NCBI GenBank assembly: GCA_965279525.1
Contig: CBDIIB010000005.1
Coordinates: forward strand, 1,312,001-1,376,000
Direction: 5' to 3'
DNA length: 64,000 nt
From: Tagaea sp.
GTDB lineage: Bacteria > Pseudomonadota > Alphaproteobacteria > CACIAM-22H2
This document shows positions 8,324 through 11,844 of the stretch, in pieces (position 1 is the first letter of the stretch; each line of letters begins with the position of its first letter). The notes under the pieces are model-generated. The model had not been told where the DNA came from. It saw only the letters and a program-made list of their open reading frames with translations, and made no database searches. Position numbers and translations under genes: made by a program.

Positions 8324-9181
8324 TCAGCCGATCCTGAAGTTCATCGCGAGCAGGCCCGCGACCAGCACGAGTGCCGCGACGATCCGCAGCTTTCCGAATT
8401 TTTCGCCGAGCAGGAACGTGCCCATCAGCGTGGCGAACAGCACCGACGTCTCGCGCAGCGCCGAGACATGTGCGATGGCGCCAAGGCTCGACGCCCAGAT
8501 CGCGATGCCATAGCCGATCGTCGCGACGACGCCGCCGGCCGCGCCGCGCCACCAGTACTGGCGCATGTAAGGGTAGATCGAGGGGCCGCGCTTCCACATC
8601 GCGAACACGAAGATCCACGGACCCTCGAGGAGGTTGAGCCACACGATGTAGGACAGCGCGTTGCCCGACAGACGCGCACCCAGGCCATCGAGGACCGTGT
8701 AGGCCGCGATCGTGAAGCCCGTGCATATGGCAAGCCCGATCGCGCGCCGCTCGGCGAAATTCGGGATGCCGCGCGCGAAGGCAAGTCCCGCAATGCCGAG
8801 CGAAACAAGCACCACGCCGACCGATTCGCGGAAATCCAGGAACTCGCCGATCAGCGTGCCCGACATGATCGCGACGAGGGTGGGGCCGAGTCCCCGCGCG
8901 ATCGGGTAGACGAGCGACAGGTCGCCAAGCGCGTAGGCGCGCAGCAAAAACACGTAATAGAAAAGATGGACCGCGAGGGAGCCGAGCAGATAGGGCCAGG
9001 CGGCGGCGTCGGGAAACGGGACGAAAGGCGCCATCGCGAGGCCGATGATGCAGCCGACGAGCATCACGACGCCGAAAGAGGTGAGGCGATCGGGATCCGA
9101 CTTGACGACGGCGTTCCACGACGCGTGCATCAGGGCGGCGAGGAGGACGAGGGCCGCGACGGACGGATCGATCTTTTCCAA
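8324..9181 (-). CDS. EamA/DMT family transporter
   Basis: About 10 hydrophobic segments; AALMHASWN, GDLSLVYPIARG, SALRETSVLFA; TTG start uncertain. Confidence 0.9.
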   Translation of the reverse strand: MEKIDPSVAALVLLAALMHASWNAVVKSDPDRLTSFGVVMLVGCIIGLAMAPFVPFPDAAAWPYLLGSLAVHLFYYVFLLRAYALGDLSLVYPIARGLGPTLVAIMSGTLIGEFLDFRESVGVVLVSLGIAGLAFARGIPNFAERRAIGLAICTGFTIAAYTVLDGLGARLSGNALSYIVWLNLLEGPWIFVFAMWKRGPSIYPYMRQYWWRGAAGGVVATIGYGIAIWASSLGAIAHVSALRETSVLFATLMGTFLLGEKFGKLRIVAALVLVAGLLAMNFRIG

Positions 9182-9223
9182 CTGCTCCCGCTCCCGCGTG
9201 CCCGGAAGGCGGATTCTAGCCCC

Positions 9224-9263
9224 AAAACGCAGAAGGGGCGCGGGAGAAGAACCCCCGCGCCCC
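9224..9263 (-). terminator. Rho-independent terminator after the Lys-rich micro-ORF
   Basis: 10-bp stem GGGGCGCGGG/CCCGCGCCCC (9235-9263) followed on the minus strand by TTCTGCGTTTT. Confidence 0.7.
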
Positions 9264-9286
9264 CAAATGCACTGAGCGAAAACCGC

Positions 9287-9337
9287 TTACTTCTTCTTCT
9301 TAGCGGCCTTCTTCTTAGCCTTTTTCTTCGCAGCCAT
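9287..9337 (-). CDS. 16-aa Lys/Ala-only basic micro-protein MAAKKKAKKKAAKKKK (not in ORF track)
   Basis: ATG GCT GCG AAG AAA AAG GCT AAG AAG AAG GCC GCT AAG AAG AAG AAG TAA; SD AAGGAG 7 nt upstream; downstream terminator. Confidence 0.75.
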   Translation of the reverse strand: MAAKKKAKKKAAKKKK

Positions 9338-9476
9338 GATGTGACTCCTTGTTTCCGATGGTGTCGGACCGGGAAAGGCGCGCCGGAGATCTGAGCGGAG
9401 CTGGGTGTTTAATCCCTGCCCTTTTGACCTACGACGGAGTTGGAGCCCTCCCTGGAGACGATCCGACCGTCGCTAG

Positions 9477-9504
9477 AACATCATTTTGAACAAGGGCATG
9501 TCAA
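9477..9504 (-). promoter_or_regulatory. Candidate sigma70 promoter for the micro-ORF
   Basis: Perfect TTGACA (9504-9499), 16-nt spacer, weak -10 GATGTT. Confidence 0.4.
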
Positions 9505-9691
9505 GGAAATTCAATATGAGGGGGGTTGACATCGCCAACCCCACTATCGTTAGGGGGCATCGCATGCTGTTGCGGGAGTCGTCAAACCACCTTCTACAGC
9601 TAGTTAGAGACAGCAAGAAAACCCAAATAAAATCGAGACAATTTGCATGTCGGCATTTTGCGCGCGTGATGAAAATCAACGCGCGATTCCC

Positions 9692-10609
9692 TCACGTATC
9701 GAGGTCGAGAAGGCTCTTTGAAAAACTTTCCGCGTCGAACGATTTCAGGTCGTCGATTCCCTCGCCGACACCGATCAACACCGTCGGAGTCGCGAATCGA
9801 TTCGCGATCGCGACCAGAACGCCGCCCTTGGCGCTGCCGTCGAGCTTGGTGACGACCAGTGCATCGATGTCGACCATGCTCTTGAACGTCTCGACTTGCT
9901 GCAATGCGTTCTGTCCGATCGTCGCATCGAGGACGAGCATCGTGTCGTGCGGTGCAGATGCATCCAGCTTCTTGATCACGCGAACGATTTTCTTGAGCTC
10001 GTCCATCAGGTCGGCCTTGTTGTGGAGCCGGCCTGCGGTATCGACCAGCAGCACGTCGACATCCGCTGCGCGCGCCTTCTCAAGGGCTTCATAGGCGAGG
10101 GCCGCCGGATCGCCGCCCTCGCGCGCGGCGACGACTGTCACGCCGGCGCGTTCGCCCCAGATCTCGAGCTGGCGCACGGCGGCGGCGCGGAAGGTATCGC
10201 CGGCGGCGAGCATCACCGACTTGCCTTCGGCGCGCAGCGACGACGCGATCTTGCCGATCGTCGTCGTCTTGCCGCTGCCGTTGACGCCGACGACCAGCAC
10301 CACGTGCGGCCGACGCGACATATCGGGCGCCCAATTACGCGCGACCGGCGCGAGGATCGCCGCAATTTCGGCGGCGAGGATGCGCCGCACTTCGAGCGAG
10401 GGCGTGTCGCCCGGCAGCTTGCGGGCGCGCACGCGCTCGACCAGCCGGGCCGCGACCGTCGGGCCGAGATCGGCTTCGATCAGCGCTTCCTCGAGCGCAT
10501 CGAGCGATGCGGCGTCGAGCCGGCCGAGATTGAGCGCGCGCCCGATACCGTCGACGAGCTTGCCCGAGGATTTTTTAAGACCTTCCTTGAGGCGGTCGAG
10601 CCAGCTCAC
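9692..10609 (-). CDS. ftsY: SRP receptor FtsY (short NG-only form)
   Basis: GVNGSGKTTT, DTFRAAA, DTAGRL, TKLDGSAKGG. Confidence 0.97.
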   Translation of the reverse strand: MSWLDRLKEGLKKSSGKLVDGIGRALNLGRLDAASLDALEEALIEADLGPTVAARLVERVRARKLPGDTPSLEVRRILAAEIAAILAPVARNWAPDMSRRPHVVLVVGVNGSGKTTTIGKIASSLRAEGKSVMLAAGDTFRAAAVRQLEIWGERAGVTVVAAREGGDPAALAYEALEKARAADVDVLLVDTAGRLHNKADLMDELKKIVRVIKKLDASAPHDTMLVLDATIGQNALQQVETFKSMVDIDALVVTKLDGSAKGGVLVAIANRFATPTVLIGVGEGIDDLKSFDAESFSKSLLDLDT

Positions 10610-11844
10610 GCGGGCACCCCGACAAGACCGGCCGGTTCGTGCCCGACGACGCGCACGCGCAGCAGCGTGCCGCGCGGGTGCGCATCGGCAAGGCGCACGC
10701 GCGCCCCTTGCGCATCCAGTCCCTCGCGGCCCGACTTCTCGACCAGCACGTCCGCCTCGCCACCGACCCGGGCGGCCAGATAGCGCTGCCGGGCTGCGGC
10801 GGCAGTCTCGCGCAGCTGGCGCGCGCGGGCGCGCACCGTCGCTTCGGGCAACGGGCGCATGCGCGCGGCCGGCGTGCCGGGGCGGGGCGAATAGGCGAAA
10901 ACGTGCGCGTGGGCGAGACCCATCTCGTCGACGAGGGTGCGCGTGTTCTCGAACGCGGCTTCGCTTTCGGTGGGGAAGCCGGCGATCAGGTCGGCCGCGA
11001 CGGCAATGTCGGGCCGGGCCGCACGCGCGCGCGCGACTGCGGCAAGGACCTGCGCACGGCTGTGCCGGCGCTTCATGCGCTTCAGGATCAGATCGTCGCC
11101 GGCCTGCACGGAAAGGTGCAGGAACGGTGCGAAACGCTGCTCGTGCGCCATCAGATCGAACAGTCGGTCGTCCAGTTCGGCCGGATCGACCGACGACAGG
11201 CGCAGGCGCGCCAGATCCGGAGCGCCGGCAAGAATCGCGGCGCACAGGTCGCCGAGCCGCGGGCGGCCGGGCAAGTCGCCGCCCCATGCGGTGAGGTCGA
11301 CCCCGGTCAGCACGACCTCGCGCCGGCCGGCCGCGACCGCCCGGGCGACGCGCGCCCGCACCCCGTCGATTGCGAGAGAACGCGAGGGACCGCGCGCATA
11401 GGGGATGACGCAGAATGTGCAGCGATGGTCGCAGCCCTGTTGCACTTCGATGAAGGCGCGCGTGCGCCCCTGCGCGAGGCCGATGTCGCTGGCGACGAAG
11501 TCCTGGCGCGCCATGATGTCGGAGACCGCACTTGCGCGCGCGCGCCAGACGGCGGCATCGAGCTTGTCGCGGTTGCCGACCACGGCATCGACTTCGCCAA
11601 GCGCTTCATAGCGCGCCGGATCGAGCTGGGCGGCACAGCCGGTCACGACGATCCGCGCGTCCGGTTTCTCGCGCTTCAGCCGGCGGATGGCGACGAGCGC
11701 ATCGCGCTCGGCTTCCTGCGTCACCGCGCACGTGTTGACGACGAGCGTGTCGCGGTCGCCGGCCTCAGCCAGCAGCGCTTCGATCGTCGCGGCCTCCGCG
11801 GCATTGAGCCGGCAACCGAAATTGACGACGCGGGACGAATTCAT
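10606..11844 (-). CDS. mtaB: tRNA t6A37 methylthiotransferase (radical SAM)
   Basis: FGCRLN, NTCAVT, VTGCAAQ, CDHRCTFC; conserved dapF-mtaB-ftsY order. Confidence 0.92.
   Translation of the reverse strand: MNSSRVVNFGCRLNAAEAATIEALLAEAGDRDTLVVNTCAVTQEAERDALVAIRRLKREKPDARIVVTGCAAQLDPARYEALGEVDAVVGNRDKLDAAVWRARASAVSDIMARQDFVASDIGLAQGRTRAFIEVQQGCDHRCTFCVIPYARGPSRSLAIDGVRARVARAVAAGRREVVLTGVDLTAWGGDLPGRPRLGDLCAAILAGAPDLARLRLSSVDPAELDDRLFDLMAHEQRFAPFLHLSVQAGDDLILKRMKRRHSRAQVLAAVARARAARPDIAVAADLIAGFPTESEAAFENTRTLVDEMGLAHAHVFAYSPRPGTPAARMRPLPEATVRARARQLRETAAAARQRYLAARVGGEADVLVEKSGREGLDAQGARVRLADAHPRGTLLRVRVVGHEPAGLVGVPA

Follow-up and report, generated by a model that had tools for sequence, protein, structure and literature searches.

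Lysine/alanine-rich bacterial proteins of the histone H1 type include Hc2/HctB of Chlamydia, AlgP of Pseudomonas and the tail of mycobacterial HupB, and the ribosomal proteins include tiny basic ones, such as bTHX and eL41 (beside bL37 and bS22), which carry arginine, aromatic and hydrophobic residues. H1-like proteins of this kind are the subject of PMC2848022 and PMC9239181, and PMC7298713 deals with trpL/peTrpL, the leader peptide of a ribosome-dependent attenuator. Here we compare with these systems a locus from a 64-kb stretch of Tagaea sp. DNA (the window, to which coordinates refer unless another contig or locus is named), in which a micro-gene lies on the minus strand between ftsY and a gene for an EamA-family protein. 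Its open reading frame (ORF) of 16 codons encodes a peptide made up of lysine and alanine. Judged from its sequence and that of its relatives, it is very probably a real and translated micro-gene, stand-alone and monocistronic. The coding part consists of two elements:

9287 to 9337, minus strand: micro-ORF of 16 codons plus TAA, product MAAKKKAKKKAAKKKK (sequence reading, genus and order loci).
9345 to 9360, minus strand: ribosome-binding block CATCGGAAACAAGGAG, with the Shine-Dalgarno (SD) sequence AAGGAG at 9350-9345, 7 nucleotides (nt) before the ATG (from the sequence; largely unpaired in the fold).

The ORF extends from the ATG at 9337 to the TAA at 9289-9287, with the codon order ATG GCT GCG AAG AAA AAG GCT AAG AAG AAG GCC GCT AAG AAG AAG AAG TAA, so that MAAKKKAKKKAAKKKK contains ten Lys residues (nine AAG, one AAA) and five Ala residues (three GCT, one GCG, one GCC). 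Upstream of 9337 the frame is open without a start, as no in-frame ATG, GTG or TTG precedes the ATG before the preceding stop is reached, and the ORF listing of the window holds no longer ORF covering the site. The original prediction, made from this DNA alone, had described the ORF with its ten Lys and five Ala, the AAGGAG at 7 nt and a TTGACA at 9504-9499, all of which are found in the sequence.

With the entire intergenic region as the query, BLAST found matches in each of the other 20 genomes of the genus. In the genus loci fetched the peptide is identical in 20 of 20 (G000 and 19 others), and the four sites that vary within the micro-ORF are all third codon positions, a coding signature that is free of selection bias. 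For the family, we used a strict pattern consisting of GGAG, 5-10 nt and the first ten codons with synonymous freedom only, which matched 43 of the 50 genomes, the reversed control matching none; the GTDB order contains the same 50 genomes as the family. A pattern search for an SD and a Lys/Ala micro-ORF in relatives had been proposed as a check on the prediction, and its outcome was thus positive. Five of the seven non-matching genomes were also scanned with a looser pattern, revealing variants in three (MAAKKKT.., MAAKKKS.. and MAKKKKA..) and none in two; together with the 43 strict matches, the gene is therefore present in at least 46 of the 50 genomes of the order. All 43 order loci fetched from matching genomes retain the ATG, the SD and an in-frame stop, with an ORF of 12, 15, 16 or 17 amino acids (aa). 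Insertions and deletions are all multiples of three and thus in frame, each of the stop codons TAA, TAG and TGA is used, and the peptides end in K, V, I or Q. The spacer from SD to ATG changes in sequence and in length, and the ATG and GGAG are constant.

Two additional arrangements were detected among these relatives. One genome of the order encodes two paralogues that are longer, at 20 and 29 aa, and share the TCGGAAAA.AGGAG context. A genome from the genus of the window (locus L027, 1526-1552; G019:C1, ~2,375,700) has a second site with the short ORF MKAATKKK-stop, followed by the same post-stop spacer as in the window gene and by its own hairpin, which resembles a partial duplicate of the 3' end.

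That the frame is a functionless chance ORF in a purine-rich intergenic stretch might be suspected from its very short, low-complexity sequence. However, in this genome of 4.35 Mb with 66-67% GC, where Lys accounts for 3.2% of codons, the only stop-delimited frames with at least seven Lys in their 14-residue tail are the micro-ORF and the end of one long Lys-rich protein. Such an origin is contradicted also by the synonymous-only change across genus and order, by the conservation of the expression signals and by the promoter-retrieved betaproteobacterial loci described below, and its probability appears negligible. The other Lys-dense tail belongs to a longer protein outside the window (G000:C3, ~333,900-334,104, plus strand), which is Lys/Ala/Pro-rich and H1-like (...KKPVAKKAKPVAKKKPAIKKVAVKK...). 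Codon usage, computed from 1558 ORFs that reach 300 aa and have a third-position G+C fraction above 0.8, modifies one part of the original prediction, in which both the AAG and the GCT codons were regarded as unusual. AAG makes up 89% of the Lys codons of the genome, so nine AAG out of ten in the micro-ORF are ordinary and constitute no sign of high expression, whereas GCT represents 3.5% of Ala codons, so that three out of five are indeed unusual.

A second set of loci came from the Betaproteobacteria. There the micro-gene is equipped with a dedicated promoter (TTGCAT, 18 nt, TAGAAT) and a terminator, and its leader measures 110-160 nt. The promoter motif alone retrieved 52 loci, 49 with an intact Lys/Ala micro-ORF and three broken by contig ends, and ATG, SD and in-frame stop are retained in all 49 usable ones. 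In the 30 distinct ORFs of this group, AAR codons number 331 (186 AAG and 145 AAA), AAY and AGR are absent, and each of the four GCN codons occurs. This promoter-retrieved set is again a coding signature without selection bias, and the conserved micro-gene with coding-type variation that had been predicted is therefore found in the genus, in the order and in the Betaproteobacteria.

These counts bear on the possibility that the locus produces mainly a small regulatory or dual-function RNA, whose 5' domain, AAG tract and 3' region act as RNA, for example with the AAG tract as a site for the distal face of Hfq, the motif of which is (A-R-N)n, and the 3' region as a base-pairing seed. The transcript has the size of a small RNA (sRNA) and folds well, short stand-alone contigs of it occur in RNA libraries, the terminator (ATGCGTTGGACGG-loop-CCGTCCAACGCATTTTT) is conserved as a sequence in most genera of the order together with a 3' motif, and AAG repeats are compatible with A-R-N. 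However, as Lys is encoded by AAR only and all GCN codons are used, the variation follows the genetic code and not an A-R-N motif. The ATG, SD and in-frame stop kept in every order and betaproteobacterial locus and the in-frame nature of every insertion or deletion also argue against it. Moreover, no Rfam 15 family reached its gathering threshold on the window transcript, 17 order loci or 18 loci from other phyla. We consider such a role rather unlikely. The sole Rfam match with E <1 was RF02225 (sX6), at 9217-9339, with 15.1 bits against a gathering threshold of 40, and it was discarded as spurious because it rests on the purine-rich stretch and the terminator, the consensus containing GAAGAG-type codons and not the micro-ORF. 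Passages of PMC3300014 and PMC5559785 describe sX6 as an mRNA that encodes a signal-peptide protein of 80 aa, a further reason for the rejection.

The micro-gene, in our preferred reading a protein-coding one, is accompanied by the following signals and structural elements, all on the minus strand:

9526 to 9531, minus strand: TGTCAA, inverted partner of the -35 TTGACA (present in 14 of 25 aligned order sequences, counted by eye).
9507 to 9518, minus strand: A+T-rich block CATATTGAATTT, directly upstream of the -35 (order consensus CATATTGAATTT.CTTGACA).
9499 to 9504, minus strand: -35 hexamer TTGACA (from the sequence; nearly invariant in the order alignment).
9475 to 9483, minus strand: probable extended -10, TGaTGTTCT, with an 18-nt spacer and a weak hexamer (assigned by position; the TGATGTTCTA block is conserved).
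9338 to 9468, minus strand: 5' leader of ~125-130 nt, start estimated at 9460-9468 (from the library contig ends at 9448-9460 and the presumed -10 position).
9459 to 9467, minus strand: 5' strand of helix P1, GUCGGAUCG (minimum-free-energy, MFE, fold; P1 is 94% paired order-wide, with G-U and compensatory changes).
9445 to 9452, minus strand: 5' strand of helix P2, GGGAGGGC (MFE fold; 97% of cells paired).
9372 to 9379, minus strand: 3' strand of P2, GCCUUUCC (MFE fold and order-wide pairing).
9363 to 9371, minus strand: 3' strand of P1, CGGUCCGAC (MFE fold and order-wide pairing).
9265 to 9286, minus strand: spacer after the stop, in which GCGGUUUU is pairable with ORF codons 10-12 (alignment and fold).
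9234 to 9264, minus strand: intrinsic terminator hairpin of 13 pairs (11 GC), starting 22 nt past the stop (terminator scan and fold).
9224 to 9233, minus strand: T-rich tail TCTGCGTTTT (sequence and terminator scan).

An alignment of 25 order sequences exhibits, in this direction, the conserved blocks CATATTGAATTT.CTTGACA, TGATGTTCTA ~18 nt further on, GTTCGGATCG, AGGGAGGG, CGGTCCG...CATCGGAAA.AAGGAG (whose CATCGGAAA.AAGGAG part is almost invariant), the ORF and, after the stop, GCTCGGTGCGTT; within the spacer, the motif GCTC(A/G)GTGC is kept across genera. The gene thus has expression signals of its own, as predicted, with a conserved promoter block and a terminator, although the terminator had been predicted as 10 bp at 23 nt past the stop rather than the 13 pairs at 22 nt found by the scan. 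The assignment of the -10 is presumptive because the consensus promoter scan did not call the TTGACA/18 nt/TGaTGTTCT site. By its position, the CATATTGAATTT block would resemble an UP element; with up to four substitutions allowed, the genome contains no other copy apart from one weak match. On either side of this A+T-rich block, TGTCAA and TTGACA make up an inverted pair with 21 nt between them, and they could be operator half-sites for a dimeric regulator. No second copy of the promoter, leader or ribosome-binding block was found in the genome, where the full promoter block and the 5' motif of the leader match here only and other matches are weak or partial (the closest being the ribosome-binding block with one substitution at C5:378708); there is no sign of a regulon.

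The leader is conserved in both the genus and the order comparisons. The 243-nt RNA from 9468 to 9226 folds at -99.1 kcal/mol (z -3.3), and none of 200 shuffles folded as well. In the MFE fold, nucleotides 2-106 of this RNA make up a single domain closed by P1 and P2, the ribosome-binding block is mostly unpaired, with only its 3' end, AGGAG, in a weak 5-bp hairpin with the start-codon region, and the terminator stands apart, with no alternative or antiterminator helix that uses its arms. Across 24 order sequences, 95.4% of the P1 and P2 cells are paired, compared with 27-60% when the strands are slid, which gives moderate order-wide support for these helices. Within the genus, compensatory change affects seven of 40 predicted pairs (five rows, the first of them running into the ORF). 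The betaproteobacterial leader also opens with a long-range helix with compensatory pairs (CG 13/UA 12; GC 15/CG 10/UA 3). In the terminator loop of the window there is a pyrimidine run, UUCUUCU (9251-9245, minus strand), complementary to GAAGAAG of the ORF, and in several other genera such a run directly follows the stop (e.g. TAA-CTTCTTC), so that the end of the ORF may pair with it.

The locus is also present in RNA libraries: 11 RNA-recorded runs from seven studies hold part of 9100-9700. The four runs compared, from four studies, each contain a contig of 189-198 nt that aligns over its entire length, from 9260/9270 to 9448/9460, without any difference or loose end. The coincidence of the contig ends across studies provides a weak hint of a discrete RNA, and the contigs, the promoter and the terminator together fit one of ~240 nt. 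One run contains a 188-nt contig whose loose end corresponds to the ribosome-binding context seen in a different genus of the order, and the loose ends of further contigs read SD-ATG-GCA-AAG-AAA in reverse complement, that is, look-alikes from other organisms. The ftsY and EamA flanks have no contig cover in the four runs compared, which says nothing about silence or relative expression, and shares of 0.28-0.33 in the runs outside these four were likewise left out of the argument.

Look-alikes beyond the order were searched with a 30-nt ORF-start pattern in one-genome-per-species contigs, giving at least 120 loci, for which taxon labels are given as deposited. Among the 120 matches listed, 90 head a Lys-rich ORF of up to 45 aa (11-45 aa, at least 40% Lys), nearly all of them Lys/Ala-rich throughout and distributed over many phyla; the remaining 30 include some long Lys/Ala-repeat proteins, some HU-like proteins and some unrelated ones. 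Each look-alike lineage has a conserved upstream context of its own. The forms include MAAKKKAKKKR in Acidobacteriota, MAAKKKAKKKAKKKKK in Binatia, products of 24-37 aa in Patescibacteria and MAAKKKAKKKATKKKATKKK in Nitrospirota, the last at times as tandem pairs. Tandem micro-ORFs ~200 nt apart were observed in L094 (5552-5611 and 5755-5814), L098 and L042, with two copies each, on contigs labelled Nitrospirota and on one contig of an alphaproteobacterial metagenome-assembled genome (MAG). The same 30-nt pattern gave 26 matches in viral contigs, 23 of which head ordinary proteins of 48-451 aa and three short ones; the micro-ORF is therefore neither a by-product of the pattern nor typically viral, and a phage origin was dropped. 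In the class as a whole, a looser pattern matched eight of 301 evenly drawn genomes (one of the eight being the unpublished G089, which supports no other result) and no control. With sequence of such low complexity, the lineages may have a common origin or may have converged.

FtsY was identified by TIGR00064 (325 bits against a cut-off of 260.7) and the protein on the other flank by PF00892, the EamA gene starting ~50 nt past the terminator on the same strand. This layout, with a Lys-rich short ORF, a terminator and a co-oriented gene, suggested that the peptide could be the Lys-codon leader of a transcription attenuator for the transporter gene, and EamA does follow in most genus loci and in two other genera. 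However, in L011-L015 of the genus, and in L052 and L100, two MAG loci with the same peptide, a 264-aa OlsE-like gene takes the place of EamA, and micro-gene, leader and terminator are kept unchanged, a persistence that counts for a stand-alone micro-gene. The terminator, 22 nt past the stop, has no overlapping antiterminator in the fold, the downstream genes in other phyla are unrelated and often on the opposite strand, and an exporter-type family would not be an expected target of starvation-induced read-through. On the replaced downstream gene and the missing antiterminator, the attenuator was rejected as very improbable.

Upstream of ftsY lie genes for a MiaB/MtaB-type methylthiotransferase and for dapF (PF01678), the latter three genes upstream of the micro-gene. 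In the Betaproteobacteria, lysA precedes the micro-gene on the same strand in 13 loci (L041, L055, L056, L060, L078, L079, L085, L087, L091, L104, L118, L134 and L150), at a distance of 240-350 nt in the 11 measured, and one locus adjoins a class-I lysyl-tRNA synthetase; the lysA of L056, the only one scanned against NCBIfam, scored 523 bits on TIGR01048. The nearness of lysA there and of dapF in the window may be a hint, noted post hoc, of a link to lysine, or a coincidence. Such a link would fit a locus in which the act of translation matters and not the peptide, the Lys-dense ORF sensing the supply of lysine or Lys-tRNA, or ribosome capacity, as the speed of the ribosome over ten Lys codons alters the 3' part of the RNA or neighbouring transcripts. 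Lys codons do make up ten of the 16, the methylthiotransferase and dapF lie just upstream of ftsY, the post-stop GCTCGGTGCGTT is conserved across genera and codons 10-12 can pair with the spacer. This mechanism is nevertheless quite unlikely, since the neighbours are unrelated to lysine in most lineages, no alternative structure overlaps the terminator, the link was spotted after the fact and, with a separate promoter in either lineage, the micro-gene is not part of the lysA or the ftsY message.

The neighbours are otherwise lineage-specific (RmuC in Acidobacteriota, DsbD_TM in Binatia, a Pol-beta-type nucleotidyltransferase in Nitrospirota), and no neighbour gene is universal across the lineages. 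Ribosomal-protein families are absent from the 25 commonest Pfam families on either side (84 downstream and 82 upstream neighbour ORFs). Patescibacteria-labelled contigs exhibit the order 16S rRNA, RNase P RNA, 30-aa micro-ORF and SecA (L075: 1-176, 2337-2681 and 2949-3041; L103: 1-1085, 1958-2303 and 2681-2773). Two genomes from a different genus of the order each have a guanidine-II (mini-ykkC) riboswitch match no more than ~1 kb from the micro-gene, at L160 2616-2663 (minus strand) and L021 1004-1051 (plus strand), with 48.3 and 47.1 bits against a gathering threshold of 32. In the window, the longest ftsY ORF (531 aa; 9692-11287, minus strand) has an Arg/Ala-rich N-terminal extension of ~210 aa before the domain of the signal recognition particle receptor, its start being uncertain.

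As the 16-aa peptide is shorter than the 20-aa minimum of the searches, family, cluster and homology queries were made with relatives of 20-37 aa. Six of these matched no Pfam or NCBIfam model (E up to 10), and ten were absent from a collection of 15 billion proteins, in line with the prediction that annotation pipelines would miss such genes. The string 'MAAKKK' occurred in none of the paper texts searched, and no account of such a gene was found in the literature, supplements (e.g. PMC10117765) being outside the scope of this search.

Taken together, these results suggest the following sequence of events. A sigma-70-type promoter, composed of the A+T-rich block, TTGACA and a weak extended -10, would start an RNA of ~240 nt near 9460-9468. 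Its first ~105 nt would fold through two long-range helices beginning 2 nt from the 5' end, probably stabilising the RNA, and the A-rich ribosome-binding site AUCGGAAACAAGGAG would stay largely single-stranded. Ribosomes would then translate the 16 codons, and the GC hairpin with its T-run would terminate the RNA 22 nt past the stop. Removal of Met is expected before Ala, and would give the 15-residue AAKKKAKKKAAKKKK, with a net charge of about +10 and devoid of hydrophobic residues. The product may be a small soluble polycation, free in the cytoplasm, that acts on a polyanion (ribosomal or other RNA, ribosomes, DNA or polyphosphate), a role to which we give about an even chance and in which its mode of action would be like that of a free histone-H1-type tail or of the tiny basic ribosomal proteins. 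Binding to the nucleoid, the ribosome or polyphosphate, as originally put forward, would be one form of this activity.

Several observations weigh against this interpretation. The order-wide tally of variable positions in the first ten codons (nine third, one second, no first) is partly circular outside the genus, because the selecting pattern permits only synonymous change there. Covariation in the leader is modest, with compensatory change in three of nine P1/P2 pairs across the order and 16-43 of 500 shuffles reaching the observed measures. The contigs from RNA libraries do not tell the strand, the true ends or the level of an RNA, and such libraries may contain DNA; the high expression originally predicted thus gains no support from them. 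A phmmer search of PDB chains gave no match for relatives of 37 and 20 aa, a result that is uninformative for low-complexity queries and limited also by the lack of ribosome structures from these lineages. The neighbours are neither ribosomal nor nucleoid genes and, given the patchy distribution in the class, the look-alikes of other phyla may be convergent low-complexity sequences and not homologues. Finally, we infer translation itself, the removal of Met, the function of the leader and the binding target, the last of these from composition alone.

If the peptide is made, few conserved stand-alone protein genes of bacteria would be as short as this one. The micro-gene would then also stand for a set of similar ones in Acidobacteriota, Nitrospirota, Binatia, Burkholderiales, Patescibacteria and other groups, which have no entry in the protein collection, Pfam, NCBIfam or Rfam as checked here. 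An oligolysine made by the cell would bear on the charge neutralisation of RNA, DNA or polyphosphate, on unassigned densities in ribosome maps and on the coding capacity below annotation cut-offs. We tentatively raise the further possibility that free Lys/Ala peptides of 11-30 residues, produced in many phyla from dedicated sRNA-sized transcripts with folded leaders, constitute an unrecognised class of gene-encoded polycations, either the smallest nucleic-acid- or ribosome-binding proteins known from bacteria or protein counterparts of polyamines, which gene callers and tryptic proteomics would miss systematically.

Among the known systems, attenuator leader peptides such as trpL/peTrpL share with the micro-gene a length of ~14-16 codons, the enrichment of one residue (here ten Lys codons of 16) and a terminator after the ORF, and as in those systems an action in trans is conceivable for the small RNA and the peptide once released. 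In contrast to them, the micro-gene has no antiterminator alternative and no conserved downstream operon, and its long folded leader lies upstream of the ORF and not around it. The tiny basic ribosomal proteins have fewer than 40 residues, are mostly basic and easily missed by annotation, like the product described here, and the folded 5' leader may recall those of ribosomal-protein mRNAs; yet the relatives match no family model, the micro-gene lies outside ribosomal-protein operons, its distribution is patchy, and the window peptide holds only K and A after Met. With the H1-like proteins, it shares runs of K broken by A and, with some long Lys/Ala-repeat and HU-like proteins among the matches listed, the N-terminus MAAKKKAKKK, and its action would be expected to be that of a polycation on polyanions. 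The likeness to an H1 tail that had been proposed thus holds for composition but not for length, as the H1-like proteins have 70 to >200 aa, or form the tail of a folded domain, whereas the micro-gene product, of 16 aa (12-17 aa order-wide), is free-standing, being neither a long array nor a fused tail, and has a dedicated promoter, folded leader and terminator. Although it does not fit either of these two groups, nor the attenuator leader peptides, it is an H1-type tail or a tiny basic ribosomal protein that the peptide most resembles.

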